Virus record (IMG/VR): IMGVR_UViG_3300027759_000003
Coordinates: 45,758 to 109,757 of that record
DNA: 64,000 nt
Reading direction: 5' to 3' (one strand)
Source of the DNA: a virus
Position 1 is the stretch's first letter, and each line of letters begins with the position of its first letter. Below the pieces are notes generated by a model. The model had not been told where the DNA came from and did not search any database. It saw nothing but the letters and a program-made list of their open reading frames with translations. The translations under genes and the position numbers were made by a program. Positions 8,239 to 40,716 of this stretch are shown piece by piece.

Positions 8239-8263
8239 CCTAGGCATGTTGTAAAACTGCCTA
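8239..8263 (+). ncRNA. Conserved 3'-UTR hairpin motif (covariant copy)
   Basis: CC-TAGGCA-TG-TTGT-AAAAC-TGCCTA, 8 nt after the hsp20 stop; same architecture as five copies in the early region. Confidence 0.6.
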
Positions 8264-8300
8264 TTATTTGATATACTTAGATATAACTATAGGAGAATTA

Positions 8301-8474
8301 ATGCCAAGATATGATTACAAATGCTCTGTTTGTTCTTCACAAATTGAGTTTGAAAAAAAATTTGATGAAGAAAAATATCCAGTATGCTGTAATCAATCTA
8401 TGCAAAGACTTTGGAGTGCTCCTACTGCAATTTTTAACGGTAGTGGATTTTATTCAACAGACAATAGAAAGTAG
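8301..8474 (+). CDS. FmdB-like zinc-ribbon protein
   Basis: MPRYDYKCSVC...CC...F.GSGFYSTD; AGGAG RBS. Confidence 0.85.
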   Translation: MPRYDYKCSVCSSQIEFEKKFDEEKYPVCCNQSMQRLWSAPTAIFNGSGFYSTDNRK

Positions 8475-8489
8475 CGATATAATAGTACT

Positions 8490-8747
8490 ATGACAAACAT
8501 ATTAAAAGATCATCCAAGCGTAAAGCCAAAACAATGGGTTTTAGATGCAAAAGATCGTTGTGATACATGCCAAGCACAAGCCTTAGTCAAAGTCAAAGGG
8601 GCTTCTGGAGAATTAATGTTTTGTAGTCATCACTACGATAAGATAATGAATAACTCTGAGTCATATGCAAAGATGATGTCTTTCATGTTAGAGGTTCTTG
8701 ATGAGCGTGAAAAGTTAGTTGAAAATAGAGCGATTGGGGCAGTGTAA
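8490..8747 (+). CDS. Zn-finger hypothetical protein
   Basis: DRCDTC...LMFCSHH motif typical of small actinobacterial proteins. Confidence 0.7.
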   Translation: MTNILKDHPSVKPKQWVLDAKDRCDTCQAQALVKVKGASGELMFCSHHYDKIMNNSESYAKMMSFMLEVLDEREKLVENRAIGAV

Positions 8748-9154
8748 TGTATGAGTATTTTGTTAGAGAAGTAAAAAGTGTTGTTGATGGAGATACCATT
8801 GACGTAATTATTGATTTAGGGTTTGATATTTTATTTTCATCCCGTGTTCGTTTGGCTGGCATCGATACGCCAGAGTCACGTACAACAGACAAGGCTGAAA
8901 AGGCTCTTGGTCTTGAGGCTAAAGAATATTTAAAGAAACAGTTAAAGGATGCTAAGTCAGTTGTTATTCGTACAGAAAAAATGAATTCTTCTGAAAAATA
9001 TGGACGTATTCTTGGTTGGATATATATTAATGGAGAATCAGAGTCTATTAATAATAAAATGATTAATGATGGATATGCTTGGGGATACCTTGGCGAAACC
9101 AAAATTAAAGATTTTGAAGTATTAAAAAAGGCTAGAGTAAAGTCTGGCAAATGA
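8747..9154 (+). CDS. Staphylococcal nuclease-like (thermonuclease) protein
   Basis: VVDGDTI, VRLAGIDTPE, KYGRILG, IN.KMI.DGYA. Confidence 0.93.
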   Translation: MYEYFVREVKSVVDGDTIDVIIDLGFDILFSSRVRLAGIDTPESRTTDKAEKALGLEAKEYLKKQLKDAKSVVIRTEKMNSSEKYGRILGWIYINGESESINNKMINDGYAWGYLGETKIKDFEVLKKARVKSGK

Positions 9155-9408
9155 AATCAATACTTTACTTTACGGCAGACTGGTGTCAGCCTTGTAAGAA
9201 AGTAAAGCCAATTGTTGAAGAATTAAATAGAGAATATTTTCCTGGTATTTTTCAAATAGTTGATGTAGATATAGAAAGTGAAATGGCTAAAACTTTTGAA
9301 ATTCGTTCTGTGCCAACATTTATTTTATTTAAAGACGGTAAAGAAATTAATAAAATAATTGGATCACAGACCAAACAATCATTATTGGAGTTTATTGGAA
9401 ATGAATAA
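9151..9408 (+). CDS. trxA: Thioredoxin
   Basis: WCQPC active site, VDVD, SVPTF. Confidence 0.92.
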   Translation: MKSILYFTADWCQPCKKVKPIVEELNREYFPGIFQIVDVDIESEMAKTFEIRSVPTFILFKDGKEINKIIGSQTKQSLLEFIGNE

Positions 9409-9736
9409 CGAAGAAGAAAAAATAATTGAAAAACTTATTCTTGATGGTGGATTAGAAACTGTAGGGGTTGACCAAGAAACTGGAGAACTTTTATACTCTT
9501 TTACTCCTAAGATTAAAAATCTTATGCCTAATTTATATAATGAGCACATAACAGATGTTAATTCTTGTGTTATGAAATTATGGGAAAAGGGGTTTTTAGA
9601 AATAGATTTCTTTGCTTCAGAACCCATTATTACCCTATCTGAAAAAGCCTTTGATCGTGATGCAGTAGAGGGTTTATCTAAAAAAGACAGGTGGAATCTT
9701 TTTGAAATCATACGGCTTTTGAATCCTAAAACCTGA
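9401..9736 (+). CDS. Hypothetical protein (possible winged helix)
   Basis: ORF coupled to trx; ATG 9401. Confidence 0.65.
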   Translation: MNNEEEKIIEKLILDGGLETVGVDQETGELLYSFTPKIKNLMPNLYNEHITDVNSCVMKLWEKGFLEIDFFASEPIITLSEKAFDRDAVEGLSKKDRWNLFEIIRLLNPKT

Positions 9737-9765
9737 TATAATCTATATATAGCCTAGGAGGTTTT

Positions 9766-10569
9766 ATGTCAGTAAACGAAGATAAAAATGTGCCAATCTC
9801 AAAATCAATGGTAGCAGAGGGTGACTTTGTTATGTTTGTTCATGAGGATGATGGCATTATGGCTGGTCGTATTGAATATGTTATGACTAATCCTGGTTTA
9901 CTTGGTCTTCCTGGTTCTGAATACTCAATGGAATATGCTGAAGATGACAAACCAGTTATTGTTCGTGCTTATAAAGAAGAAGATGGCGCATGGGAAGAAC
10001 AGGCATATGTTTTTTATCATCGCATGTCAGAAGTTATAAAAATTGAATCACTATCTGTTTCAGTTGACATGGTTGTAGAAATGGGATCAAATGGAACTGG
10101 TATTCCAACAATCCCATCGCAATCTGATATGGAAAACATGTATGCTGTTCAGGTAAGCAAATCCTACAACTCAGATAATGAAGATGAAGACAAGTGGGAC
10201 AATATGACAAAAGCATGTTGGGTTGGATATGAACAACGTGGCATGAAAGAAAAAGGTGGACGCATGGTTCCTAATTGTGTTCCTGTTAACAAACTAAAAG
10301 AAATGGAAAATGAAATGGCAAAAGCAAAACCTAATTATGGAGATTTTATTAAACCACGTAGGGGTGGATCAACACCATCAGATCCTAAACTATATGCAAG
10401 AGTTGTGCAAGCAGCAAAAGATAAGTTTGACGTTTATCCGTCTGCAGTAGCAAATTCTTGGGTAGTACAAGAATATAAGCGTCGTGGCGGTACATACAAA
10501 TCAGAGTCACAATCTACAACAAAAAGTATTTGGGATGGATCTTTTAATCCTTTAAGGTTTGAAAAATAA
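9766..10569 (+). CDS. Multi-module hypothetical phage protein
   Basis: GGAGG RBS; contains CWVGY..KGGRMVPNCVP and YPSAVANSWVVQEYKRRGG modules common in phage head-associated proteins. Confidence 0.75.
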   Translation: MSVNEDKNVPISKSMVAEGDFVMFVHEDDGIMAGRIEYVMTNPGLLGLPGSEYSMEYAEDDKPVIVRAYKEEDGAWEEQAYVFYHRMSEVIKIESLSVSVDMVVEMGSNGTGIPTIPSQSDMENMYAVQVSKSYNSDNEDEDKWDNMTKACWVGYEQRGMKEKGGRMVPNCVPVNKLKEMENEMAKAKPNYGDFIKPRRGGSTPSDPKLYARVVQAAKDKFDVYPSAVANSWVVQEYKRRGGTYKSESQSTTKSIWDGSFNPLRFEK

Positions 10570-10709
10570 TGACAAAGAAAAAAACAACAGCATTCAATCC
10601 TACACAAATAAAAAATGGTAGGATTGTTCGTTTAAGAAAAGACGGTACCATAAAAACAGATCTTGGTCCGTATCCAAAAACAAAGGCAGGGGTAACTAAT
10701 GGCAAATAA
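10569..10709 (+). CDS. Small basic protein (46 aa)
   Basis: TAATG coupling; MTKKKTTAFNPTQIKNGRIVRLRKDG; below the ORF-track cutoff. Confidence 0.6.
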   Translation: MTKKKTTAFNPTQIKNGRIVRLRKDGTIKTDLGPYPKTKAGVTNGK

Positions 10710-10809
10710 AGAACAAAAAGGTAATGCTAATACAAAAAAAGAGCCTAAGATGACTCTTAAAGAAAAACGTGTTGCTAAACAACAAAAACGGGATAAGAAA
10801 AATGGCTGA
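10699..10809 (+). CDS. Small Lys-rich protein (36 aa)
   Basis: MANKEQKG...MTLKEKRVAKQQKR; overlaps both neighbours. Confidence 0.55.
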   Translation: MANKEQKGNANTKKEPKMTLKEKRVAKQQKRDKKNG

Positions 10810-11173
10810 TACATACACTCCTACTTCTGGTATGAAGGCTGCTGCTCGTCGTGCATTGAAGTGGAAAGAAGATGGTAAGGCAACTGGCGCAGGAACTCCA
10901 GTAGGCTGGGGTCGTGCAACTGATATTGTAAATGGATCAGCAATGTCTCTTAGTACTGTTAAAAGAATGTTTTCTTTCTTTTCCCGTCACGAAGTAGATA
11001 AAAAAGGCAAAGGTTTTTATGATGGTCCAGAGTTCCCTTCTAACGGCAGAATTATGTGGGATGCTTGGGGTGGTGATGCAGGATTTTCATGGAGCCGTGC
11101 AATTGTGGAAAGAGAAAAAAAACAAGTAGAAAAGGTTTGGGCAGATAGCCCATTTAATTTAAGGAAGGGGTAA
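10802..11173 (+). CDS. Conserved phage hypothetical domain (often fused to head-morphogenesis proteins)
   Basis: GTPVGWGRA...TVKRMFSFFSRH...IMWDAWGGDAG. Confidence 0.75.
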   Translation: MADTYTPTSGMKAAARRALKWKEDGKATGAGTPVGWGRATDIVNGSAMSLSTVKRMFSFFSRHEVDKKGKGFYDGPEFPSNGRIMWDAWGGDAGFSWSRAIVEREKKQVEKVWADSPFNLRKG

Positions 11174-11176
11174 AAA

Positions 11177-11335
11177 GTGGAGGACTTAACCATTGAAGAA
11201 GTAAAACAATTAGTTGTATTTTATAAACAAAAATCTTCAGATCTTGAGTTTAATTTATTGCAAATGCAAATAAAGTTAAATAGGACTATGTCTGTTGAAA
11301 ATTCAGTAGAAGCAAAACCAGTAATTAAAAAGTAG
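11177..11335 (+). CDS. Small coiled-coil protein
   Basis: GTG start after AAGGGG; 52 aa. Confidence 0.55.
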   Translation: MEDLTIEEVKQLVVFYKQKSSDLEFNLLQMQIKLNRTMSVENSVEAKPVIKK

Positions 11336-11348
11336 ATTGGTCTGAATA

Positions 11349-11768
11349 ATGCAAGAGTTAATAGTCTTAGGCTTGACATTGGCTCTTGCTTGGTTTATAC
11401 TTAGAGTAGGTAAAAGAAATAAAGAAAAACCTTTTTCTAGAACTTTGCATAAACAAAGTGATACGCATAGGTTAATGAAATTATTTTTTTCCATGCCTAT
11501 ATCAAATAACCAGCAAAACCTTTCTCAATTGACAAAACATAAAGAAAAGGGTATGATTAAGGTTATTGTTTTAGGCAACGAAGCATATTGGATATCTAAT
11601 CATATTTTTTATGTTGCAGAGGCTGTAGACGGTGAGGTACAACGCCACACCGCTAAACCAATAGATACTAGTACTTTATCAAAAGGTGACTTAGATAAAA
11701 TGCTTTTTATATTAGATAGTTTAAGGGATGGAAAAAGAGATGATCGTGGCAGTTCAGGGCACAAGTGA
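11349..11768 (+). CDS. Membrane-anchored hypothetical protein
   Basis: N-terminal TM segment. Confidence 0.7.
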   Translation: MQELIVLGLTLALAWFILRVGKRNKEKPFSRTLHKQSDTHRLMKLFFSMPISNNQQNLSQLTKHKEKGMIKVIVLGNEAYWISNHIFYVAEAVDGEVQRHTAKPIDTSTLSKGDLDKMLFILDSLRDGKRDDRGSSGHK

Positions 11769-12090
11769 GTTTAATGATTACAACGTATTCATTCGCTCTA
11801 TGGGTGTTGCCATGTCAAACATGCATAAAGACGATACAGAGTTTGTAATTTACTCTGCTGGTCCTGCTAAAATAAATTCTTTTGTTTCTGAGTTTTCTAA
11901 TTTATCTGAAAGAGGAATGAAAGCAAGAGGAAAAAAGATTAAATTTTATAAAGTTGCTCCAGTTTGGATGCAAGAAAATTTAGATCAAATTAACTACTTT
12001 GCTTTCTTAAGTAAGCCTAATGAAAAAACTTCAAAATTAGTTTCAGAGGCACAGTTAAAAAATGTAGAAGTTGGTATATTTAAATACTAG
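11740..12090 (+). CDS. YspA/SLOG-like hypothetical protein
   Basis: IVAVQGTSEFNDY resembles the SLOG N-terminal motif. Confidence 0.5.
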   Translation: MIVAVQGTSEFNDYNVFIRSMGVAMSNMHKDDTEFVIYSAGPAKINSFVSEFSNLSERGMKARGKKIKFYKVAPVWMQENLDQINYFAFLSKPNEKTSKLVSEAQLKNVEVGIFKY

Positions 12091-12099
12091 GGGGTATTT

Positions 12100-12309
12100 A
12101 TGTTTATTAGAAGTTTGAATACTATGGAAAAAATTATTTCCAAAAATAATAATTTACTTTGGAATGGTTGGGATGTTATTGATTTAAAAGAATCTGACAT
12201 TGCAAAAACATCTCCAATGGGTATTAGAGTTAAAGATAAGTGGTACATCCACAAAGTTTATTCTCCTGGTCGTAATGGGTGGGATATACCAAACAAGTAT
12301 CGAGAGTAA
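12100..12309 (+). CDS. Hypothetical protein
   Basis: ORF with GGGG RBS. Confidence 0.7.
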   Translation: MFIRSLNTMEKIISKNNNLLWNGWDVIDLKESDIAKTSPMGIRVKDKWYIHKVYSPGRNGWDIPNKYRE

Positions 12310-12311
12310 TT

Positions 12312-12596
12312 ATGAAACAGCATTTATGGAAAGATGACGCAATTTGTTTAGGTCTTGATACAAATATTTATTTTGATAAATATGAAGACAACGAATCTGG
12401 TAGGGCAATTGTTGATTCAATGTGCCAGCAATGTCCAGTAGCAAAAACATGCTTTGCAGTAGGCATCTCTGGTAAAGAGTGGGGTGTTTGGGGTGGAGTA
12501 TATCTAGAAGGTGGAGAAGTATCTAGAGAGTTTAACAAGCATAAGACTAAAGAAGATTGGTCCAATACCTGGCAATCTTTAACAATGGAAAAATAA
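12312..12596 (+). CDS. whiB: WhiB-family Fe-S transcription factor
   Basis: Four Cys (C...CQQCPVAKTC) and the GVWGG motif. Confidence 0.9.
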   Translation: MKQHLWKDDAICLGLDTNIYFDKYEDNESGRAIVDSMCQQCPVAKTCFAVGISGKEWGVWGGVYLEGGEVSREFNKHKTKEDWSNTWQSLTMEK

Positions 12597-12829
12597 TGTA
12601 TACAGATAAAATGAAAATGGCATTTCATTCTATTCCAGCCCCTAAAAATTTCAAGGTAGAAATTATTGATAACGAACATTTTATAACCATTAAGGCTAAT
12701 GAGGATATGTTTATGCGTCTATTTGACACAGAGAAGCGACATGCTGTAGAATATATGGTAAGAGTAAAAAAGGCTTTAGAGGATAATGGGGCAATTGTAA
12801 TGATTACTAGGGAGGCTATTAAAAAATGA
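12596..12829 (+). CDS. Hypothetical protein
   Basis: TAATG coupling to whiB. Confidence 0.7.
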   Translation: MYTDKMKMAFHSIPAPKNFKVEIIDNEHFITIKANEDMFMRLFDTEKRHAVEYMVRVKKALEDNGAIVMITREAIKK

Positions 12830-13248
12830 AAGATGCTATTTTAATATTTTCTATAGTGCTATCAGTGTCATTTGCTATATCCTATATGGCGGTTTTGCAT
12901 CAATTAAGAAACCTTAAACTATCATTTGCTAAATTATTCTTAGAGAATATAACGCTAATTGATAATGCTGAAAAGTTACAATCTTCAAGAGAGTTATCTG
13001 AAAATGATATACATAGAGAAAATTTTATAAAGTTTTTATCTGATTCTAGAGACTGGGCTTTTACTTATATAGAAGATGTTCAAAATGGTTTAACTAAGTT
13101 TGTTGAAGAAATTGATCCAAGCATTAACTATTTCTCAGATTTTAGTACAATGTCAGAAGGCAATCCATTACATAATGAGATGAAAATAATATCTAATGCC
13201 TATAAAGATTTAAAAAAGTTTTTACCAGAAAATGTAGAAGATAAATGA
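12826..13248 (+). CDS. Membrane-anchored hypothetical protein
   Basis: N-terminal TM segment, FIKFLSDSRDWAF. Confidence 0.7.
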   Translation: MKDAILIFSIVLSVSFAISYMAVLHQLRNLKLSFAKLFLENITLIDNAEKLQSSRELSENDIHRENFIKFLSDSRDWAFTYIEDVQNGLTKFVEEIDPSINYFSDFSTMSEGNPLHNEMKIISNAYKDLKKFLPENVEDK

Positions 13249-13403
13249 AAACTATACTTCTATCAACACTAACAGGTTTTGGGTGCGGTCTCGTGTTTGC
13301 TGCATTCAAATTGCCAGTACCAGCACCACCAGTTTTTGCGGGAGTCGCAGGAATTATTGGGATTTGGATTGGCTTTACAACAATGACACAAATTATATCC
13401 TAG
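13245..13403 (+). CDS. XapX/DUF1427-family small membrane protein
   Basis: Not in ORF track: MKTILLSTLTGFGCGLVFAAFKLPVPAPPVFAGVAGIIGIWIG; LPVPAPP signature. Confidence 0.8.
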   Translation: MKTILLSTLTGFGCGLVFAAFKLPVPAPPVFAGVAGIIGIWIGFTTMTQIIS

Positions 13404-13411
13404 GAGGAATA

Positions 13412-13678
13412 ATGAATAACTTAATTAATGATAAGACAAAGGCAATGCTAGCGTCATATGGTCGCTCAGTTCTTGCATCAGGTCTTGCACTATACATGGC
13501 AGGCGTAACAGATCCAAAGGATCTATGGGCTGCACTAGTTGCTGCTATAGCACCCGTTGCATTGAGAGCGCTCAATCCAAATGATAAAGCGTTTGGTATT
13601 TTACCTGATGCTGCTGAGGTTGCAAAGGCTTTAAAGGCTGCAAAAGCACCTTTAAAAAAGGCTGCTAAAAAGAAGTAA
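13412..13678 (+). CDS. Putative holin
   Basis: AGGAGG RBS before ATG 13412; two TM segments, RALNPND motif, basic tail. Confidence 0.6.
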   Translation: MNNLINDKTKAMLASYGRSVLASGLALYMAGVTDPKDLWAALVAAIAPVALRALNPNDKAFGILPDAAEVAKALKAAKAPLKKAAKKK

Positions 13679-13695
13679 ACAATCTTCTATAAGAT

Positions 13696-13727
13696 AGCCA
13701 GTCTAGAAATAGGCTGGCTTTTCTTTT
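13696..13727. terminator. Terminator between convergent transcription units
   Basis: AGCCAGTCTA-GAAA-TAGGCTGGCT plus T-tract. Confidence 0.85.
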
Positions 13728-14763
13728 ATTTGTTTATAATTTCTAAGTATTTTTGTTTTAATTTATCTATAGAAAAGTTTTCTAAACCAATTGATAATGC
13801 TTTTTCTTTAAATTCTTTTTTATTATTATTTTTAATATATCTATCAACTATGTTTGCAAATTTATCTGGAACAATATTATAAATATCAACCATTGACTTT
13901 GTTCTAAATGATCCTATCTTTGTTGATTCTACTAACCAATCTTCAGGCAATATTGTATTATTTGGAGATACATTAGTCATAAAAACTGGCAGGGCACTCA
14001 TAAGAGCCTCATTCATAGGTAAACAAAGACCAGCATACCTTCTAGGCAGAATCATTGCATCAAAGCCATCATACATGTCTTCCCTACTGGCTGGATTACC
14101 TATTTCAATCTTTACCCTAGAATCTTTACAGTTTGTATCAATTGGGGTTTGGGATTTAATTACTAATTCGTAATCTTCTTTAGAATGCTTGACCATCTCA
14201 AAAATACTTTCAGTTCCATTTCTATCTTTTGCAGCCTTTTTACCAGCAATATGAAGTATACGGTTGTGATCTTTTGAAAGATTATTGTCTTTTGCTTTAT
14301 TAAATAAAGACTCATTTGTTGGTGGTGGTAAATGAATTACATCACATGCAGAGCCAAACCTTTCTTTTACTATGTCTATATTCCAAAGACTAGGAGATAG
14401 CAATACATCTGGTAATGACCAGTTAGGGTTTGTTAAGTTACCAAAAAGTTCGTAGTTGTATTGAAGAATAGTCTTTGTTCCTTGTTGCCTAGCAAGATCT
14501 ACAAGGTCTAAATGATAAAAGGTTTCACAACTAATTACTACATCAACATCTTTTAAAAACCAAATAATTTCTTTTGTTGTTGGCATACCTCCCCTAGTTG
14601 AGTAAAAATTATAACCTTCATACCATTCAGGATGCTGTTTATTTTTATTAAACGGGGCAGAGTCAATTAAAAGAATCTTATCAGGATTAAGCATATTAAC
14701 TAACTCTCTAGTCTGATTGCCAAGACCAGTGTTGTCTGATCTTGCTATGATTCCTAGTCTCAT
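13726..14763 (-). CDS. GT-B glycosyltransferase (GT4-like)
   Basis: TGLG N-terminal loop; LPRRYAGLCLPMNEALMSALPV nucleotide-binding motif. Confidence 0.85.
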   Translation of the reverse strand: MRLGIIARSDNTGLGNQTRELVNMLNPDKILLIDSAPFNKNKQHPEWYEGYNFYSTRGGMPTTKEIIWFLKDVDVVISCETFYHLDLVDLARQQGTKTILQYNYELFGNLTNPNWSLPDVLLSPSLWNIDIVKERFGSACDVIHLPPPTNESLFNKAKDNNLSKDHNRILHIAGKKAAKDRNGTESIFEMVKHSKEDYELVIKSQTPIDTNCKDSRVKIEIGNPASREDMYDGFDAMILPRRYAGLCLPMNEALMSALPVFMTNVSPNNTILPEDWLVESTKIGSFRTKSMVDIYNIVPDKFANIVDRYIKNNNKKEFKEKALSIGLENFSIDKLKQKYLEIINK

Positions 14764-15521
14764 TCTTTATACCCCCAAGTTTCATCGTCTACCGTAAATT
14801 TGCGGGTACCTTGACGACCATCTAAATGATAAGAACGTTTAATGTTTTCTTCAGGATGATAAATCCAAAGTTTATGAGTCTCCCAACCTTCTTGATTAAA
14901 CTCCCCATATGGAGATATATCATCTTGAATTGCTCCATGAAATGTATCTTCTATAAAAAATTTATCTTTACATCTTGGAAGCACAATGTCTTTATAATAT
15001 TGTTTTCTACTTAGATGTGGTCGTTGACTCCATTGTATAGTTTTCATAAACCCATCTTCTAAACCAAACATAAGGTGTTCGTGATCTTTTGGTATAAATG
15101 CTTCAAAATGAAAACGAATAGTATTTGCTTTATTGTATTCAAACATGTCCAAACATTTATCCCAGTCTATAGGTGTGTCTGGAGTTAATGGAGCGTCTCC
15201 TTCAACATAAAGCAATAGTGGTGTTTTAATTTCATTAATTGTTTTACGCATCATGTTGGTTTGATGGCTATGCTCTTTAAATATAAAAGGTAATATGTTT
15301 TTATCTTCATGTAAACATTTCCACAAAATACGATTTTTGTATTCATCGTAATCTTTTTTACGATCTTGTTGTTCTTCCCTAAGACCATCTATTTGCATAA
15401 TAATTTCGTTGTCTGGAAAATGAGCACGAACATCACTAATAGTTTGATCTATCATTTTTGTGCTTGGATGATCTGTAATTACAGAAGTAGCCATGACAAT
15501 TGTTATATCTTTTTTATGCAT
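14760..15521 (-). CDS. GT-A-like glycosyltransferase
   Basis: ITIVMATS, QIDG, LLLYVEGD, SYHLDG. Confidence 0.65.
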   Translation of the reverse strand: MHKKDITIVMATSVITDHPSTKMIDQTISDVRAHFPDNEIIMQIDGLREEQQDRKKDYDEYKNRILWKCLHEDKNILPFIFKEHSHQTNMMRKTINEIKTPLLLYVEGDAPLTPDTPIDWDKCLDMFEYNKANTIRFHFEAFIPKDHEHLMFGLEDGFMKTIQWSQRPHLSRKQYYKDIVLPRCKDKFFIEDTFHGAIQDDISPYGEFNQEGWETHKLWIYHPEENIKRSYHLDGRQGTRKFTVDDETWGYKE

Positions 15522-18904: not shown

Positions 18905-18972
18905 GGATCCCGCCCATTCTGTGTTTATAACAGTATACCAGATTCTGATATACTTATAAGAAAGCGGGGTAT

Positions 18973-31559: not shown

Positions 31560-31569
31560 AAACTTATTG

Positions 31570-32310: not shown

Positions 32311-32430
32311 TATGCTGGTAGGCGATCTTTAATTAAGTTAGCAATGATGTTGTGTGCCTGGTCCACTTCATGTAGAGAGCCAGACCATAGCAACTGTTGG
32401 GCTTTAAGTAACTGTTCATCTAAATAGTTA

Positions 32431-32926: not shown

Positions 32927-33000
32927 GAAACCCCTATCTAAATTATACCAAAGGAAAAGGGAGAGCGCAACCCACCACAGTTAACGCCCTCCCCATATTG

Positions 33001-33399: not shown

Positions 33400-33544
33400 T
33401 ATGCATCCGTCCTTTCAGGTATGATTGATATTTGGTTTGTTATCTCATTAAAGATATCGTTCTCGTCTTCGGTGTCAGTCTCATATTCAAAATTCATATA
33501 AGTACCTGTTGGCTCAAAGATTATTTCAACATCCCATGTAGCCA

Positions 33545-33862
33545 TTATAGGTCCCCTTCAAAATCGATTACAACTTTAGAAACTCTGCCGTCATCGTTCA
33601 TCTGAACATATACTGGATATAGCCCATCGCCATAACCTGTATTAAATACTACTGCCGTGCCATTACCTAACTCGCCATATGAATTAGCAAGGGTAGTAGC
33701 ACTAGCACCATGATAAGAGTATTGACCTTCTTTGCCGTCAATATTCCAATCATCATTTTTGTTGGTATCCCAATTATCAATATAGCATGGGTCGCCTACC
33801 ATGGCCTGACCGCTATCAACTGCAAAATGTCCTGCTAAGATTAAATCTTTTGTTTTTATCAT
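33545..33862 (-). CDS. DUF4241-like protein
   Basis: AVDSGQAMVGDPCY and TGYGDGLYPVY. Confidence 0.7.
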   Translation of the reverse strand: MIKTKDLILAGHFAVDSGQAMVGDPCYIDNWDTNKNDDWNIDGKEGQYSYHGASATTLANSYGELGNGTAVVFNTGYGDGLYPVYVQMNDDGRVSKVVIDFEGDL

Positions 33863-33871
33863 TAGGTCTCC

Positions 33872-34435
33872 TTAGAAGTGGAAGTCAACTGGTACTAGAT
33901 ATTGTCTCACGGCTCGATCAGGTTTGTCAAGTCGCTCATCTAAATACTCGAATTCAGAGACATGTTCTTGAAGGTCGTAAAACCCACTGTCGGATGTCCA
34001 AGAGCCCATGAGCATTTCTGCTGCTTGTTTAATAGAATAAACATTCATTAGGGTATCTCCGTTCCAGGGACCCCTGCCACCCTCTGAAGCATAGTCGACC
34101 ATTTGACTAATAAACTTATCAGTCTTAATCTCTACTATGTTCCTGTTCATGGTTTGAGAGCGGAACCTTAAGATATCCTTAACTACTTCTTGGAACTTTT
34201 CTTTATTTTCAGCATAGCCAATAACATCAGTAGGGTCATCGTTATAACCCCCCATAAGGTTGTTTTCGCTTTTTTTGTTGGCATTAGTACTCCACCTTCC
34301 TCCACCTACGACGTGCCAATCTGACCAGTCTGCTAGGCGATATCCGTCTTCGTTTGATTGCAGGCTTACAACAACTTTGTCAAAAGCCTCTTGCTTGCTA
34401 TCTGCTTCAACTGCTATATAGTGTAGGGTATGCAC
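33872..34435 (-). CDS. Conserved phage hypothetical protein
   Basis: WSDWHVVGGGRW...VPVDFHF. Confidence 0.75.
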   Translation of the reverse strand: MHTLHYIAVEADSKQEAFDKVVVSLQSNEDGYRLADWSDWHVVGGGRWSTNANKKSENNLMGGYNDDPTDVIGYAENKEKFQEVVKDILRFRSQTMNRNIVEIKTDKFISQMVDYASEGGRGPWNGDTLMNVYSIKQAAEMLMGSWTSDSGFYDLQEHVSEFEYLDERLDKPDRAVRQYLVPVDFHF

Positions 34436-34758
34436 TATTCGTCCCTTCCCTCAATTAGTTGTATCTGATAGTACTGTTTGTCATCGTAGGGCACGGTAGT
34501 TACAAAGTAACCAATCCTATTAACCATATGCATACCGTCACAGATATAAGTTCCACCGTCATCTCCGTCACAGTAAGTCCAAACAGTATTAGGATGTAGA
34601 AACACATGGTCTCTAACAAACTCTACCTCGTCACCATATGTCTCAAACATATAGCCGTGCTCACCGTCATTGAATGAGGCATTCTCGTCTAAATGGTTTG
34701 GTATAGGCTTGAACTGTTTAAACCATTCATCCTCTGTAAGTTTTACTAACTTGGGCAT
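34435..34758 (-). CDS. Conserved phage hypothetical protein
   Basis: MFETYG, VWT, VNRIGYFVT. Confidence 0.75.
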   Translation of the reverse strand: MPKLVKLTEDEWFKQFKPIPNHLDENASFNDGEHGYMFETYGDEVEFVRDHVFLHPNTVWTYCDGDDGGTYICDGMHMVNRIGYFVTTVPYDDKQYYQIQLIEGRDE

Positions 34759-34788
34759 TGGGCTTCTTTCTCTAGGGTTCTTAATACA

Positions 34789-34843
34789 ATTTTACTACGA
34801 ACTGGGAAAAATTACAAGGTATCGTAAGGTGATCTACATCACA
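34789..34843 (-). promoter_or_regulatory. Promoter TTGTAA-17-TAAAAT with bipartite phage motif and upstream CRP-like box
   Basis: -10 at 34789-34794, -35 at 34812-34817, GGTGA-N6-TCACA at 34828-34843. Confidence 0.7.
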
Positions 34844-35477
34844 CTGCTTTGGCTTGCTCCCCAATAGGTTTGAGGGTTCTCTTCAAGAAGTCCCCTAATA
34901 CTATTAATAACCTCTTCGTCAGACATGATCTCTCCGTCTGTGTTTATAAGTTCCATAATCTTATCTATGATCTCACCGTGGTCCATTAGTCTTCATCCTC
35001 ATCTTCATCAATTACATATGCAACATTAGACTGACCCTCGTGAAATGAAGGTGGGTCTTGCCATATACCCCAAGATAAAGAACTATCAGATAGGCCCTCT
35101 GACACTAAGTCTCCACCAAATTGCGATGAATATGTTTTAGTCACATTACCCATAGTATGTGTTCTCATCTATGTAACCTTCTGCTAACAAACCTTCAAAG
35201 AAGTCCCATATGGTTAATAGGCCTTGCTTTACTTTTGGGTCGGTAGCGGAATCAATAGCAACAGTTAAACTATTACCAAATTCTTGTATATCCTTGTATG
35301 TATAACCTAACATTATCTATCATACTCCTTAATCAAATTCATCGCAAAGTGAAGACAACAATCGCAGTCTCCATTATTCATGCTATATATAAAGTCAAAA
35401 TGTTCAGAGTTGTCCTCATATATATTCATTATTAGGCCGTCTATGGTTAGTGGTTTGTTAATTGTGGTCATGTTAAT

Positions 35478-35516
35478 ATTTTACAGGAAACTGGGGAAAA
35501 AGTCAATCTTTCTTAA
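35478..35516 (-). promoter_or_regulatory. Promoter TTGACT-17-TAAAAT
   Basis: Near-consensus hexamers; TTTTCCCCAG in the spacer. Confidence 0.75.
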
Positions 35517-35559
35517 TGAAACAATCATGTGTTATTATTTAAAGAAAGAAAACCCGGAG

Positions 35560-35633
35560 CGGCTCTGATGGGACTTGAACCCACGATCTCTACCGTGACA
35601 GGGTAGCGCATTAACCAACTATGCTACAGAACC
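35560..35633 (-). tRNA. tRNA-Asp(GTC)
   Basis: Reverse complement: GGTTCTG/CAGAGCC acceptor, CTACC-CTGTCAC-GGTAG anticodon arm, GTTCAAGTC. Confidence 0.92.
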
Positions 35634-35638
35634 AATGG

Positions 35639-35663
35639 TGAGCAGTTTTAAATCATGCTCAGG
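35639..35663 (-). ncRNA. Conserved 3'-UTR hairpin motif
   Basis: CC-TGAGCA-TG-ATTT-AAAAC-TGCTCA. Confidence 0.65.
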
Positions 35664-35671
35664 ATTTTTTA

Positions 35672-36688
35672 CTAAACTAGTTGCAAAGTTTTTTGCACAA
35701 CAGTTAGCAAACGATTTTTTTCTGCATTAGTTGCAGGGTCAAATCCAGAAGCAGCAGCAAACATGCTTTCGCCATTTGCACTACGAGATGAACGATACCA
35801 GTCTAAACGCTCAGTAAGTGCATTAAATGCGCCCCAAGCATTACCAGCAATCATGCCATTAAAATCACCAGTATAAATATCGTTAATCATATTTACCTTG
35901 TTTTCCCATTTCTTGATTGCACCCTTAGTATCTAATTCAGGTTTTGGATAAGCAGCAAGAATAATATCATTGAAATCTTTCGCTGATATTTCTTTTTGTA
36001 TCATAGCATGAGCCATCTTGTCGAATTCGTCCATGTATGAGTTAGCCATACCTAGTGCTTGACGAGCAACAGCAACCTTGCCATTGGCAGTTTGTGTATG
36101 ACGGATTTTGAAAGATTGCTTGACGCCATCTTTTTTCTTAGTACGATTGAGTGCAACATTAAGAGTGTTAGCGCACACAACACGAACGGGAGTGATAGAA
36201 GCCTGAATTGCAATAGAGCCATCATGGCTAGTGTTAATAAGCAAATAAGTTTTAACCTTATCCGCAACACCATTTGGGTCTAATACAGTTTCACGCTCTA
36301 AAGCAAGAGAGCCAAATACTACACGACCACCCTTAAGAGAGCCAGCAGTTTCCCAACGACCTCCACCATCAAGAATGTTATCGCCAAATGCAAATAACTC
36401 TTCATTTTGTAGTGGTGTGTATCGCTCACCAACAATTCCCAAAACATCAGTTTGAGATTTATCAGTTGGGTTTGTACGAACAACATATTGATATTGTTTG
36501 TCAGATACTAAACTAGATGGGATTTCTAAATCCTCTAGTCTAACATTCCAATTATTTAAGTTAGCAGCAACAAGCATTTCACTTGTATTTTTTTCAGTAT
36601 CAAATACTGTGCCAAGATTGTGCCATGCAGGCTCTCTAAATGAAGCAAAACTTGCTACGCCATTTTGAGTTTCTAAATCATGAGCCAT
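35672..36688 (-). CDS. DUF932/DUF945 (TIGR03299) phage/plasmid protein
   Basis: PAWHNLG, YTPLQN, ETAGSLKGG, NTSHDGS, TPVRVVCANTL, NAWGAFNALTE. Confidence 0.92.
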   Translation of the reverse strand: MAHDLETQNGVASFASFREPAWHNLGTVFDTEKNTSEMLVAANLNNWNVRLEDLEIPSSLVSDKQYQYVVRTNPTDKSQTDVLGIVGERYTPLQNEELFAFGDNILDGGGRWETAGSLKGGRVVFGSLALERETVLDPNGVADKVKTYLLINTSHDGSIAIQASITPVRVVCANTLNVALNRTKKKDGVKQSFKIRHTQTANGKVAVARQALGMANSYMDEFDKMAHAMIQKEISAKDFNDIILAAYPKPELDTKGAIKKWENKVNMINDIYTGDFNGMIAGNAWGAFNALTERLDWYRSSRSANGESMFAAASGFDPATNAEKNRLLTVVQKTLQLV

Positions 36689-36714
36689 TTTTATCCTTTC
36701 GGTTGTTTTAACTA

Positions 36715-36743
36715 AGTTTAGCAGTCATGACAGCCAATGTCAA
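36715..36743 (-). promoter_or_regulatory. Promoter TTGACA-17-(TGC)TAAACT
   Basis: Consensus -35 and extended -10. Confidence 0.75.
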
Positions 36744-36819
36744 ATAGGATTGGGGAAAATGGTTTAATCTTCTTAATTGGTATAAATCGGACATTTCGGG
36801 CGGGGCCGGGTTTTTGTTA

Positions 36820-36845
36820 GGGCCAGTTTTACGTCTTGGCCCACG
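36820..36845 (-). ncRNA. Conserved 3'-UTR hairpin motif (covariant copy)
   Basis: GGGCCA-AG-ACGT-AAAAC-TGGCCC. Confidence 0.6.
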
Positions 36846-36905
36846 ACGTTGATAGCCCCCTATCAAATTTAAGCGGTCCCTGCAGCGGATGCTACAGATC
36901 TCTTA

Positions 36906-37370
36906 TTAGTTCTCCTCAAGTGACACATCGTCTACAGTTAAGTCAGCGTCATAGTCATATGAACTTAATTCTGCATCAATGGTTACACTGCTTAGATCAA
37001 AGTCTTCAATCTCATCCAATGGGATGTTAATAGTTCCACTGAATGTAACGGTGCCGTATACACTCATTTGCTTTACAGGATTAAGATTAAAGTGTTGTGT
37101 TAGCGCTTTTAAAACTTCTTCTTTAGAATAGTTTGGGTCATACCATTCAGGAATTTGATCTTCAAGCCATGAGATGTCTAAACGACGCTCTGCTGCTAGA
37201 TTGGCATTAGTTCTGCCTTGATGTAGTTCCCATTCAAGATCAGTAACTTTATCAGTCATGAATGTAGGGCTTTCAGGTGCTGCATAGGTGTCAGGTATAG
37301 CCTTGTAGGTTACAAGTAGGTTAGGATTGTATGGAACAGATAACTGCTCCTGTGTCATTACTTCGCTCAT
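36906..37370 (-). CDS. Acidic hypothetical protein
   Basis: AAGGA RBS before MSEV. Confidence 0.7.
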   Translation of the reverse strand: MSEVMTQEQLSVPYNPNLLVTYKAIPDTYAAPESPTFMTDKVTDLEWELHQGRTNANLAAERRLDISWLEDQIPEWYDPNYSKEEVLKALTQHFNLNPVKQMSVYGTVTFSGTINIPLDEIEDFDLSSVTIDAELSSYDYDADLTVDDVSLEEN

Positions 37371-37440
37371 TAGGGGTTCCTTTTCTGTTAATACAATAAT
37401 ATCATCAAGATTGTGGGAATGCAAGTTCAGTTCTTAATTA

Positions 37441-37472
37441 GTCTCACATAATGAGATGTGATTTAGATCACG
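37441..37472. promoter_or_regulatory. Composite operator: RTCTCA-N5-TGAGAT plus CRP-like box
   Basis: GTCTCA-cataa-TGAGA-TGTGA-tttaga-TCACG; same arrangement at 38605-38636. Confidence 0.65.
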
Positions 37473-37505
37473 CTGCCCCGGATTTTTGCGGGGGGCAATT
37501 AAAGA

Positions 37506-37531
37506 TGAGCAGTTTAGAACTCATGCTCAGG
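37506..37531 (-). ncRNA. Conserved 3'-UTR hairpin motif
   Basis: CC-TGAGCA-TG-AGTTCT-AAAC-TGCTCA. Confidence 0.65.
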
Positions 37532-37585
37532 AGTCTTATCTCAGGAATAACTTAGCAATTAAGCCAAGTGCTTATCAGAGATAAA

Positions 37586-37756
37586 TTATTTAGTTGTGCT
37601 TACCATAGCAAGGCGTCTTGCGCCATTTGCTAATTGTAAGGATACTCTAGTGGTCTTAGAGTTGATAGGTGAGAACTTTACAATTCTACCTGTGATACCT
37701 GTTTTGCTTGTGGTGAATAAATCACCTAGTTGGTATGTGTATCCGCCTAGTGTCAT
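37586..37756 (-). CDS. Small basic beta-barrel protein, paralog of 38355-38525
   Basis: Not in ORF track: MTLGGYTYQLGDLFTTSKTGITGRIVKFSPINSKTTRVSLQL; AAGGA RBS. Confidence 0.7.
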   Translation of the reverse strand: MTLGGYTYQLGDLFTTSKTGITGRIVKFSPINSKTTRVSLQLANGARRLAMVSTTK

Positions 37757-37838
37757 GATTTTCCTTTTCTGTTGTGGTGGTTTGTTATATTAAGTATAAC
37801 ATTTTTGGGGGGGCAAGTCAAGAACCCCCCCAATACTA

Positions 37839-38261
37839 TTAGAGATAACGAGCAATAGCGTTATATGTGCTAGTGCTAACTGTTTCCTCGTCCGTCATTT
37901 TAAGGATACGGATAGCGTTCTCAAGTTCCTCTTTCATTTCACGATAAGTATGAGCATGGATTTGCTCAAAATTACGCTCAGGCTCTTTGGGAAAGTCTGC
38001 CTCATCTGTGATTAAATCAAAATCAACATTAAGGGTTTTGTTCCAAGAACGATAGTTAGTGCGTAGGTTTTCAGCCTTTGAGATGTTAGCAGTAGCAAAC
38101 TTAGCAACTTCTTTGCGCCATTTATCTACTTGCTTTTGGAACTTTGCTTCCAGTTCATCTTGATTTGTGTAGTCAGCATTTACTTGTGCTAACTTTGTTT
38201 CTAAGGCTTTGATAACCTTAGCAGTAGCGATTTTTACGCTGATGGGTTTGCTTCTTGCCAT
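37839..38261 (-). CDS. Hypothetical helical protein
   Basis: ORF track. Confidence 0.75.
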   Translation of the reverse strand: MARSKPISVKIATAKVIKALETKLAQVNADYTNQDELEAKFQKQVDKWRKEVAKFATANISKAENLRTNYRSWNKTLNVDFDLITDEADFPKEPERNFEQIHAHTYREMKEELENAIRILKMTDEETVSTSTYNAIARYL

Positions 38262-38308
38262 TTGGTTTGTTTCCGTTTCTGTTGGTGAGTTTGATGGGGG
38301 TATTAAGT

Positions 38309-38333
38309 TGAGCAGTTTCTCGTCATGCTCAGG
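38309..38333 (-). ncRNA. Conserved 3'-UTR hairpin motif
   Basis: CC-TGAGCA-TG-ACGAG-AAAC-TGCTCA. Confidence 0.65.
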
Positions 38334-38354
38334 ACTTTAGCCACTAGGCTAAGA

Positions 38355-38525
38355 TTAAGCGTTCTTTGCTGTCCAAGTTGTCCAGCGAGTTGAGCCATTA
38401 ACATCTAACTTAACTCTAACTGTGTTCTTGTTAGTTGGCACAATTTCGGTAATAGTTCCTACTACCTTTGATTTTTGTGATGTGTAGGTGTCGCCTACCT
38501 TGTATGTTGCGTTTGCTACGGACAT
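38355..38525 (-). CDS. Small basic beta-barrel protein
   Basis: AAGGAG RBS; TYKVGDTYTSQKSKVVGTITEI. Confidence 0.7.
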   Translation of the reverse strand: MSVANATYKVGDTYTSQKSKVVGTITEIVPTNKNTVRVKLDVNGSTRWTTWTAKNA

Positions 38526-38604
38526 GGTTCTCCTTCTTGTTGGTTTTTGCTTACTGTATAAGTCTAACATTTTTTGGTCAAAAATACAAATTATCTCATG
38601 GATA

Positions 38605-38636
38605 ATCTCATATATTGAGATGTGAGATATATCACA
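38605..38636. promoter_or_regulatory. Composite operator with perfect CRP box
   Basis: ATCTCA-tatat-TGAGA-TGTGA-gatata-TCACA. Confidence 0.7.
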
Positions 38637-38710
38637 CTTAATGCCCCATGCCTGAGAATAGGATATATAAGAATATAAGTGATAATACTATTAGTATCTC
38701 CATATGCCCC

Positions 38711-39439
38711 TTATTTCTTAGATGATGAAAAGACTATGTCGCTCTTAGAGTATACACACAAACCGCAAGATACGCAAGCCGAGCCAGCGCTTGAGATAAG
38801 TGGAATGGCTTTTAGGTTTTCAGGGCACTTAGCACCAGGTCGATTAAATAACTCCTTCATATCTGCCTGACCTATTGCAAAATTCTGTGCAAGGTATGCA
38901 AGGCGTATCCCATGATCTTTCTTTAAATTAACGCCTATCTGCTTATTCTCGCTGTCTGTTGAATAGTATAAGGATAGATTAGGAATATCCTTTAGCATTA
39001 CCGCTGCAGGCTGTACCCTTGTATATACCCAGAATTTTATATCTGTATTGTTAAGGATGATTTGTTTCCATGCTTTGGTGTACGTGTCATTAAAGAAATC
39101 ACCGTCCCAATGAATACGAAATAACAATGACGCATTTTTCTTTTCACAATCTTTTTTAAAATCATTAATCATATTCTGCAATAGATCAATCATAGTCGAT
39201 TCGTCAGCGTCTTTTAATAATTCCCAATTATGTATTAGGTTTGCCTTTACGGCTTTGTAAAGTTTTTCAAGTTTTCCTGCGTAGCAAACACTTTCACAAA
39301 CACTAGTGGCACCAGGGCATGAATAATTCTTTCCAGCGGGAAGACCGAACGTGTTTGCAATTGCGGCTTGCTTTCCATTTTTTGTAACAAGATTAGCAAC
39401 CTTTCTGTCAAATGATCTTTTTAATTGTGGTGTTGTCAT
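38711..39439 (-). CDS. GP88-like (radical-SAM-related Fe-S) phage protein
   Basis: FGLPAG..SCPGAT..C...CYA, FRIHWDGDF, FWVYTR, CxxCxxC. Confidence 0.8.
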   Translation of the reverse strand: MTTPQLKRSFDRKVANLVTKNGKQAAIANTFGLPAGKNYSCPGATSVCESVCYAGKLEKLYKAVKANLIHNWELLKDADESTMIDLLQNMINDFKKDCEKKNASLLFRIHWDGDFFNDTYTKAWKQIILNNTDIKFWVYTRVQPAAVMLKDIPNLSLYYSTDSENKQIGVNLKKDHGIRLAYLAQNFAIGQADMKELFNRPGAKCPENLKAIPLISSAGSACVSCGLCVYSKSDIVFSSSKK

Positions 39440-39445
39440 ATAAAT

Positions 39446-39484
39446 ATTTTAGCAGAATGTGGAGAAAATATCAAGTGTACGTAA
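39446..39484 (-). promoter_or_regulatory. Promoter TTGATA-17-(TGC)TAAAAT
   Basis: Hexamers at 39469-39474 and 39446-39451. Confidence 0.7.
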
Positions 39485-39542
39485 GGTACAAAACGGACAA
39501 ATCGGGCAGGGCCGGGTTTTTCTGCGGGGAAGTGCAGAAAAA

Positions 39543-39776
39543 TTATTCTAAGTGAACATACCAATCATAGTATTCATTATCAACTAACTGAGCGGTATCT
39601 TTTTCACCAAACTCATTTTGATACTCTGCATACCAAAAGTATTGGTCAGGATCAGATTCAATAGAAAGTATTTCAACTACCTCATCATTGTATCCAATAA
39701 AATCTCCAACCATCATCATAGAAGGTTTGAGAATATCTATTTTCTTTAATTCCATGTTCATCATTGTAGCAGCCAT
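39543..39776 (-). CDS. Hypothetical protein
   Basis: ORF track. Confidence 0.65.
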   Translation of the reverse strand: MAATMMNMELKKIDILKPSMMMVGDFIGYNDEVVEILSIESDPDQYFWYAEYQNEFGEKDTAQLVDNEYYDWYVHLE

Positions 39777-39861
39777 TTATTCAGCCTCAATTTCTGCTAG
39801 GGTTTCCCATAGAATAGGTTCTAGAATTTTTGCAACCTGATCTAATTTATCTTGCAAGTCT

Positions 39862-40158
39862 TTACTCATATAAGTCCTCATCTGCTGGCTCAATGAACCA
39901 CTCTAGGTGTGCGTGTGATACCAATGCGCTGGCGGTAGTCCAAGTGTTGCCCTTCCAACTAATTTGAAAGCCATCAACAACTGGTAATTCTATTCTACGA
40001 GAATAATCCTCCTCATAGTATGCGTCAATAGCCTCAATACATGGCTGAACCATTACTGTTGGTATTGGTGGATAATGATTACCTTGTAAGTGATACTTTA
40101 ATTGTGTTTCTAGGTCTAGCGTTGTATCTGCTAAACCTATTGCTGTTATGCTTCCCAT
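39862..40158 (-). CDS. Conserved phage hypothetical protein
   Basis: HLQGNHYPPIP...HLEWF. Confidence 0.75.
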   Translation of the reverse strand: MGSITAIGLADTTLDLETQLKYHLQGNHYPPIPTVMVQPCIEAIDAYYEEDYSRRIELPVVDGFQISWKGNTWTTASALVSHAHLEWFIEPADEDLYE

Positions 40159-40382
40159 TATTTAATTACGACCTCTCCGTTAGTGTAGAAGGTTTTAGTA
40201 TACATCTTACCTGTTGGGTCAGACAAATTATAGGTTGCGTATTCTTTAGCAAAGCCATAGTCCACGCATTTATCCCAAGCCCTAACTGCTTCTAGCATAT
40301 CGCTAACTCGCAGGGTATGAATTAACTCTCCATCATATGAAGTAGTAAGTGAATAAGTATATTCCATTAGTTTAGTTTCCAA
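40158..40382 (-). CDS. Hypothetical protein
   Basis: ORF track. Confidence 0.65.
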   Translation of the reverse strand: METKLMEYTYSLTTSYDGELIHTLRVSDMLEAVRAWDKCVDYGFAKEYATYNLSDPTGKMYTKTFYTNGEVVIK

Positions 40383-40556
40383 TCCATTAGTTCGTCAGCA
40401 GATATAGCGTAAGGATTACACTCGCAAGGCTCACTATCAAAGTCTACATTATTTCCTTGATATATCCAACCATAGCCGTAGCAGTATTCGTGCTCTAGTA
40501 TATCCATTAGTGCTTCTTTTACTTTACCCATTTGTTCCTTCTTTCTTTATATCTTT

Positions 40557-40578
40557 ATCCTATCAGATACAACTGACA
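40557..40578 (-). promoter_or_regulatory. PafBC/RecA-NDp-type promoter
   Basis: TGTCAG-N10-TAGGAT. Confidence 0.7.
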
Positions 40579-40678
40579 AAATCCAATTAGACGCCTTAAT
40601 CTGGGGAATTTAGGGTGTGATCTTAACCACACGTAAAGGTCATGTATAGATTGCGACACGCCGCCTGCGCCGGGTTTT

Positions 40679-40694
40679 TCGAACAAATGTTTGA
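40679..40694. promoter_or_regulatory. LexA (actinobacterial SOS) box-like site
   Basis: TCGAAC-aaat-GTTTGA, one mismatch to TCGAAC-N4-GTTCGA. Confidence 0.55.
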
Positions 40695-40716
40695 GCAGTT
40701 TTTATTCTTGCTCAGG
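40692..40716 (-). ncRNA. Conserved 3'-UTR hairpin motif
   Basis: CC-TGAGCA-AG-AATAA-AAAC-TGCTCA. Confidence 0.65.

Follow-up and report, generated by a model that had tools for sequence, protein, structure and literature searches.

The window analysed here, a stretch of 64,000 nucleotides (nt), runs from base 45758 to base 109757 of an IMG/VR virus (IMGVR_UViG_3300027759_000003) that measures 109,757 bp and has terminal repeats. It carries a short repeated element that is a compact H-type RNA pseudoknot of 27-34 nt. The initial annotation of this DNA had described the repeat as a hairpin, which would have an 11-nt loop, but this presumed loop pairs with the bases 5′ of the CC at the start of the motif; the complementarity between the bases 5′ of the CC and the bases after the WG makes the element a pseudoknot instead of a hairpin. 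With S1 and S2 as the two stems, the architecture reads S1 (N3-5 then C) - C - S2 (U-N4-A) - W - S1′ (G then N3-5) - N0-5 AAAC - S2′ (U-N4-A). At least several hundred loci across phages, mobile elements and bacterial contigs, and in truth a greater number, carry this fold of about 30 nt, which displays textbook covariation in both stems and yet has no family in Rfam 15. As for its function, the knot is tentatively regarded as a compact barrier fold that may protect the upstream cistron at its 3′ end, or insulate it there, once the transcript has been processed.

Covariation in both stems

A strict-motif scan of IMG/VR returned at least 119 loci, and S1 was assessed in 135 distinct IMG/VR instances among the matches listed, obtained with a search pattern blind to both S1 and the CC. 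In 132 of the 135, S1 paired over 3 bp or more in exact register, with 64 different arm sequences, and the CC was present in 132-133 instances, whereas controls in which an arm was slid or the arms were re-dealt between instances mostly gave 0-1 bp. S2 also varied with its pairing kept in the fetched loci (UAAGCA/UGCUUA, UGGACA/UGUCCA, UAGACA/UGUCUA and others), and 1.09 Mb of these loci contained 174 knots as against 0-5 in shuffles. In an ungapped alignment of 148 instances, 91.4% of the cells pair compared with 25-37% when the partner is slid. Eight of its 11 pairs changed on both sides, including 4-19, 5-18 and 6-17 in S1 and 10-30, 11-29, 12-28 and 13-27 in S2, and the observed covariation score was reached by none of 500 shuffles. 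Because this alignment was chosen for pairing, the 135-instance test is the unbiased measure of S1. The covariation in both stems upholds the earlier claim of a selected RNA fold with compensatory changes.

Two other versions of S2 were each found at no fewer than 118 further IMG/VR loci (at least 118 in either case) and there, too, S1 covaried, its distinct arms numbering 44 and 37, respectively. The seeming conservation of UGAGCA is largely a search effect that stems from the pattern used, and the core proper is CC-U-N4-A-W-G ... AAAC-U-N4-A. A permissive scanner for pseudoknots of any kind was abandoned since it gave 334-389 matches in shuffled DNA, as many as in the genome, and it was replaced by a scanner anchored on the core.

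A match to a known Rfam family, the outcome that would have denied the element its novelty, was not obtained. Rfam 15 searched at gathering scores recovered only tRNAs in the window, and at E values up to 10 no model matched the knot in the six window copies or in ten carrier loci. No description was found by motif letters or key words in the literature searched, and a published set of 10,006 candidate phage RNAs (PMC10690425) may contain the element.

Copies in the window

The strict pattern TGAGCA-WG-N3-8-AAAC-TGCTCA had four matches in the window, all on the minus strand, where 0.00 were expected from 100 shuffles. The pattern scan, direct reading and a hairpin scan of the whole genome agree on six copies at the positions first reported, and scanning all 109,757 bp for the hairpin or knot revealed no copy beyond the window. 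Copy 1 (8235-8263, +) follows an Hsp20-like gene (7811-8230) with 8 nt between the stop codon and the CC; its S1 pairs ACAAC (8235-8239) with GTTGT (8248-8252), its S2 pairs TAGGCA (8241-8246) with TGCCTA (8258-8263), and its first and third loops are C (8240) and AAAAC. The other five copies lie on the minus strand. Copy 2 (35639-35667) is separated by 8 nt, counted to the CC, from the TAG stop of a DUF932-like gene of 338 aa, with S1 AAATC (35667-35663)/GATTT (35654-35650) and S2 TGAGCA (35661-35656)/TGCTCA (35644-35639), and it ends 5 nt ahead of a tRNA-Asp gene (35559-35633, -), as was originally noticed. Copy 3 (36820-36849) lies downstream of a 172-aa gene, with two hairpins (36851-36898) between the stop and the knot, and consists of S1 ACGTC (36849-36845)/GACGT (36835-36831), a first loop of GT and S2 GGGCCA (36842-36837)/TGGCCC (36825-36820).

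Copy 4 (37506-37535) comes after a 56-aa gene (37586-37756) and a long hairpin (37536-37584), with S1 GACTC (37535-37531)/GAGTT (37522-37518) and S2 at 37529-37524/37511-37506. Copy 5 (38309-38335) similarly comes after a 71-aa gene (38355-38570) and a hairpin (38337-38352); its S1 is merely GTC/GAC, and its S2 lies at 38331-38326/38314-38309. Copy 6 (40692-40719) follows a small membrane-protein open reading frame (ORF; 40726-40890) with 9 nt between stop and CC, and its stems are S1 ATTC (40719-40716)/GAAT (40707-40704) and S2 40714-40709/40697-40692. The S1 of the six copies thus spans 3-5 bp. A degenerate seventh copy also exists as predicted (42001-42029, -), with the stem TTTTTGCAGA/TCTGCAAAAA, AAAC closing the loop and an S1 of at best 3-4 A-U pairs; read on the plus strand, its hairpin looks terminator-like.

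Several features reported from the first reading of the sequence hold for this set. Two copies have swapped stems with the pairing kept, TAGGCA/TGCCTA (8241-8263, +) and GGGCCA/TGGCCC (36820-36842, -), the three extra upstream hairpins fold as claimed, and all copies are on the coding strand and 3′ of a stop codon. No window copy is followed by a U-run, so these knots are not intrinsic terminators; phage copies in general support this, with a terminator-like site within 120 nt of 5 of 150 against 2.6% at control ORF ends, which is the background level.

Placement behind stop codons and candidate functions

Orientation in relatives, which had been named as a point on which the original proposal might fail, is not random: an ORF ends just upstream in 111 of 124 instances read in the sense direction compared with 44 of 124 in the antisense direction. 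The stop-to-CC distance, defined as the bases between the upstream stop codon and the first C of the CC, is sharply bounded below at 8 nt, the value in 23 cases, with 14 more at 9, one at 7 and none lower, and is 8-16 nt in 74 of 124 instances. The same 8-nt floor was observed in the set of species-representative genomes and in both sets with variant S2, and longer distances are often occupied by an extra hairpin. With the CC at least 8 nt away, S1 starts 4-6 nt past the stop codon. The spacer has no common sequence and uses all three frames (8, 9, 10, 11, 12 and so on), and the upstream ORFs fall into 42 unrelated clusters, including Hsp20, DUF932, ribonucleotide reductase (RNR), DUF669 and DUF4192. 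On the other side of the knot, the next start codon lies 12-38 nt downstream, with a Shine-Dalgarno (SD) sequence, in about a third of cases and otherwise up to 300 nt away, and the first bases 3′ of the knot are depleted in G.

The knot also has a preferred place relative to tRNA genes. Nineteen of 282 copies are followed on the same strand by a tRNA that begins within 2-12 nt, where a rough estimate puts the chance expectation at about 0.1 cases, and none is immediately preceded by one. Seven kinds of tRNA are found in this position (Asp, Asn, Arg, Val, Ser, Leu and one of undetermined type), and the order of ORF, pseudoknot and tRNA recurs in unrelated phages. In the gut phage NatCom_3357 (L133:427-583, +) the knot abuts a DUF2800 RNA (RF02960, 136.6 bits), and the sequence that lies downstream there recurs in L023, L132, L161, L173, L207, L209, L211, L227 and L235 as well, indicating that the knot precedes structured non-coding RNAs besides tRNAs.

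The gene-end cap is the explanation that best accommodates this position, the lack of any preference for what lies next and the tRNAs 2-12 nt downstream. The knot would form on the mRNA of the preceding gene, outside the terminating ribosome. According to published ribosome geometry, a duplex in the mRNA channel is unwound about 11 nt from the first P-site base, and a knot 4-6 nt past the stop codon would therefore stand at the channel entrance when the stop codon occupies the A site. Since the knot would be located at the mRNA entry of the stop-bound ribosome, the fold could survive translation of the upstream gene, and it appears to be placed as near to the gene as possible without being melted at termination. 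The long transcript would then be cut downstream: RNase P would make the cut at an adjoining tRNA, or else other endonucleases would act within the G-poor stretch, and a cut by RNase P at a nearby tRNA would leave a very short 3′ tail. A knot so tight, whose first loop is a single base, whose third loop is A-rich and whose junction is conserved, may block 3′-to-5′ exonucleases, and such a block would stabilise the upstream cistron, which would also be kept structurally apart from the next ribosome-binding site (RBS), tRNA or structured RNA.

Repetitive extragenic palindromic (REP) elements and terminator or intercistronic hairpins are known to block 3′ exonucleases and to set segment stability in polycistronic RNA, and the job proposed for the knot, a stable structure behind a cistron, is the same. 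These hairpins are plain, free in sequence and without a fixed distance from the stop codon, whereas the present family is a sequence-constrained pseudoknot with a spacing rule of ribosome-footprint type; as a 3′ stabiliser the element would be a pseudoknot version of them with a spacing rule added. The fixed place of the knot with respect to the stop codon and tRNAs gives direct experimental access to the way in which phages punctuate their polycistronic messages and make them stable. Phage annotation would gain as well, in that the knot marks true gene ends and their strand, and synthetic operons could use the knot as a compact insulator part that does not depend on the host.

Several points weigh against the gene-end cap. 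The RNA data are assembled metatranscriptome contigs, which are uninformative on RNA ends, strand and level. A simple stabiliser would need neither the invariant C, W and AAAC nor a position at the minimum distance from the stop codon. In bacterial contigs, ORFs of about 20 codons stop inside the knot or 1 nt before it and a normal terminator comes next, so the knot there is neither outside the ribosome nor the sole 3′ structure, and a short ORF in Saccharibacteria appears to traverse the knot.

These small ORFs, when their stop codon lies inside the knot, speak for a ribosome-directed element at the mRNA entry site, which would act on termination, recycling or re-initiation; it may, for instance, hold or block the post-termination ribosome, or S1 folding may be coupled to ribosome occupancy. 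This explanation is considered unlikely, despite the sharp floor and peak at 8-9 nt in four independent sets and the nearby SD and start codon in about a third of cases. The spacing geometry is also like that of recoding pseudoknots. Recoding knots, exemplified by the beet western yellows virus (BWYV)-type -1 frameshift and the murine leukaemia virus (MuLV) read-through signals, are small and combine two short stems with a third loop rich in A, a first-loop cytosine and an unpaired junction base, and they lie a few bases 3′ of the ribosomal A-site codon. The family resembles them in architecture and in spacing to the A-site codon; unlike them, it has no slippery site, fixed frame or continuing ORF, and it is found in bacterial hosts behind an ordinary stop. 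A stimulator of -1 frameshifting or read-through was rejected as a candidate, considering that the spacers share no sequence and use all frames and that a tRNA, a promoter or the next SD lies downstream. Against the ribosome-directed explanation as a whole stand the presence of all three frames among the distances, hence no recoding frame is kept, the lack of an ORF continuing through the knot, and the frequent tRNA, promoter or long gap next to it, which leaves no gene to re-initiate on.

The tight tRNA adjacency could instead reflect an RNA-processing signal, i.e., a tiny self-cleaving RNA or a site for a universal endonuclease of the RNase P type, by which phage transcripts would be cut to gene size. 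S1 and S2 together amount to 10-12 stacked pairs, and CCA comes next in 18 of 147 copies as the commonest triplet there; a minihelix substrate of RNase P has a coaxial helix of about 12 bp and a 3′ NCCA end. The occurrence at borders between genes, across many phyla and on mobile elements, is likewise reminiscent of known small ribozymes. Nevertheless, models of small self-cleaving ribozymes, with hammerhead, twister, pistol and HDV-like/theta as the classes considered, gave no match at or near the knots and none in 12 carrier loci (129 kb), and the element has 27-34 nt with about six unpaired conserved bases, a size below that of the known self-cleaving classes. The CCA is moreover present in only 12% of copies, which disfavours a tRNA mimic, and a processing signal is judged quite improbable. 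In a broader formulation, which is somewhat unlikely, the knot would not be a passive cap but a new, near-universal class of functional RNA that belongs to the mobile elements of bacteria and archaea and cooperates with a universal machine, either as a sensor or brake for the terminating ribosome or as the smallest known self-processing or RNase P-directed punctuation mark, cutting phage transcripts into independently controlled genes.

An action on transcription was also considered, in which the knot would be an RNA-polymerase pause, a factor-independent stop, a put-type antiterminator or the binding site of a phage protein. In the window, the small genes each have a sigma-70-like promoter and no sense-strand terminator, and the knot is the only regular gene-end signal; in some carriers, namely Methanobrevibacter contigs and S. 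aureus phages, it is fused to a T-run. Such a cis element is nonetheless very unlikely, because no partner protein is shared, the carriers range from T7-like and T4-like to temperate phages, use different polymerases and have hosts in many phyla, most copies lie within operons without a U-run, and the link to the stop codon would be left unexplained. The initial annotation had proposed antitermination and protein binding, together with a role in marking highly expressed transcripts; no result here demonstrates these suggestions, and the strongest regularities, the 8-nt floor and the tRNAs that begin 2-12 nt away, point to a gene-end barrier or insulator.

The size and topology of the knot recall preQ1-I (RF00522), in that both are H-type pseudoknots, measure about 34 nt and combine a variable P1 of 5 bp with an A-rich tail whose end is AAAC-U. 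A ligand-sensing aptamer of this size class, whose folding would control the decay or expression of its neighbours, is suggested by the A-rich third loop and the single conserved base per loop at the helix junction, and some neighbours are indeed genes of nucleotide metabolism (RNR, PNP, 5′-nucleotidase and xanthine dehydrogenase). However, the neighbouring genes are otherwise unrelated, no riboswitch model matched at E values up to 10, preQ1-I included, and no expression platform is apparent, as the knot overlaps neither an SD nor a terminator. Its place in the 3′ untranslated region and its 6-bp S2 set it apart from preQ1-I; an S2 of this length should also fold ligand-free, and the probability of an aptamer is considered to be very small.

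Equally slim is the chance that the repeat is a DNA-level boundary, a short shared stretch where phages recombine gene cassettes. Recombination at cassettes of promoters and stem-loops has been proposed for T4-type phages, the knot flanks small accessory genes in a cassette arrangement, and metatranscriptome contigs join knot sites. Recombination of this kind needs identity, yet S1 and S2 differ between copies with the pairing kept, which indicates selection on a folded single strand; the strand and stop-codon rules are RNA-level, and the joins may be assembly artefacts at a repeat. Parts of the region are present in 15 lake or freshwater metatranscriptomes as assembled contigs of relatives 90-99% alike. 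Lake contigs of this kind splice knot site to knot site, for example 35663 to 40718 (joints within 35663-40745), which means either that the assembly switched from one copy of the repeat to another or that related phages truly differ in their cassettes.

A close structural counterpart is the knot in the leader of the T-even gene 32. It is located in the 5′ leader of the gene for the single-stranded DNA-binding protein (SSB), with an A+U-rich stretch running to the RBS, and nucleates the binding of gp32 in an autoregulation that operates upstream of the SSB gene only (PMC3014915); the T2 structure has been determined by nuclear magnetic resonance (2TPK). Both are H-type knots of phage mRNA in which a 4-5 bp S1 ends in C-G, the first loop is a single base, S2 has 6-7 bp and touches S1 with an A-U pair, the third loop has 5-7 nt and the sequence that comes next is G-poor and unstructured. 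In the T4 record, the upstream gene segG has its stop codon within the gene 32 knot. Unlike the family, the T4 knot is without the CC, W and AAAC core, and the family trails dozens of unrelated genes, often before tRNAs or promoters, and is not tied to SSB. A knot of the gene 32 type was rejected accordingly, given the 42 unrelated clusters of neighbours and given that no window copy precedes an SSB gene.

STAXI RNA and similar elements are small, sometimes repeated pseudoknots near SSB and anti-restriction-type genes of mobile elements. Like them, the present knot has neighbours such as DUF932, DUF3768, DUF4192 and DUF669; unlike them, it is matched by no Rfam model, STAXI included, at E values up to 10.

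Spread, small bacterial ORFs and window neighbours

The carriers infect cyanobacteria, alpha- and gammaproteobacteria, actinobacteria and Bacillota or are phages of gut Clostridia. True copies were found in Mycobacterium phage Labelle, Paracoccus phage ParMal1, Synechococcus phage S-EIVl, cyanophage S-RIM4, gut Heliusvirales phages, Arthrobacter phage Molivia and Bacillus phage Edson, and Lentibacter phage ICBM1 has a copy between the genes of a cobalamin RNR and a glutaredoxin. In Molivia and Labelle the knot precedes a tRNA. About 85 S. aureus Phietavirus records are among the matches listed, and there the knot is weaker, having an S2 of 4 bp together with a T-run; phage phiETA is one S. aureus carrier. 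In S. aureus phage B236, which was read in detail (L254:1492-1530), this weak knot lies between the head-morphogenesis and scaffold genes, and two records annotate a BPROM-predicted promoter on it. Among the matches listed from species-representative genomes are many Saccharibacteria as well as Anaerolineae, Omnitrophota, Actinobacteria, lactobacilli, Nocardia, Methanobrevibacter and many other phyla, according to the contig labels; the neighbouring DUF3768, DUF7249 or family-less proteins suggest that these carriers are mobile elements. The complete genomes of E. coli gave a single weak plasmid match, and the element is essentially absent from them. A match in Prevotella phage Lak has the motif halves in the wrong order and was ascribed to chance, and matches in Erwinia and Vibrio phages were left uncounted on account of a weak S1 or of annotated genes on the other strand. 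Two of the knot-carrying phage contigs contain tmRNA-like genes (L038:11778-12019, + and L071:11486-11558, +), one a permuted and one a standard tmRNA match, and in L071 the match starts 94 nt 3′ of a knot.

The ORFs of about 20 codons are conserved, have a strong SD and accompany knots in bacterial contigs of several phyla, where they encode MKRYLIPRVAHCxEGCxxxS or MRWMFPHATHCSxCGSxR; they were found in L150, L158, L160, L187 (7183-7242, +), L192, L201, L218, L220, L225 and L228. Their stop codon is either the UGA inside the CCUGA of the knot or a TAG 1 nt before the knot, and the terminator that follows is an ordinary one. The members differ mostly synonymously, indicating that the ORF is translated, and they match no family in Pfam or NCBIfam. 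Reading the UGA in the knot as selenocysteine was rejected, because family members stop at the TAG before the knot and nothing is conserved after the UGA. A link to purine metabolism is conceivable at some of these loci: a xanthine-dehydrogenase-type gene lies upstream at 3 of about 13, a PNP gene downstream at a single locus and a 5′-nucleotidase gene downstream at another, and the remaining loci are unrelated.

In five contigs of Saccharibacteria (L135, L155, L163, L180 and L217), a 14-codon ORF (MSSDGEQWVGPEHD) with its own SD seems to cross the knot and stops in the third loop. A gene of 138 aa that belongs to no known family starts 21 nt past the knot in the same contigs.

Comparison of the whole window with named phages matched the tRNA and one short protein stretch and nothing else, demonstrating that the window has no close relative among them. 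The 56-aa (37586-37756, -) and 71-aa (38355-38570, -; phrog_11181) proteins are paralogues, each with a hairpin and then a knot behind its gene, and in other phages the genes related to these two make up, with 11 members, the cluster of upstream ORFs that ranks second in size.

G+C-rich hairpins were observed behind several window knots, at 36795-36810 (+), at 41982-41994 (+; behind copy 7) and at about 40655-40672. The first of these carries a T-run and lies just downstream of copy 3 on the opposite strand. In the sense strand the order is A-run and then hairpin, so that they look like intrinsic terminators on the plus strand only, and they may stop antisense transcription from entering the small-gene cluster. 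The order in the window is knot, opposite-strand G+C hairpin and then a sigma-70-like promoter.

A perfect DnaA-box sequence (TGTGGATAA / TTATCCACA) is located at 41961-41969 (-), where a gap follows the elements at the gene ends of the small-gene cluster. The box recurs at the same kind of place in the related phage contigs L008, L012, L087, L118 and L119.

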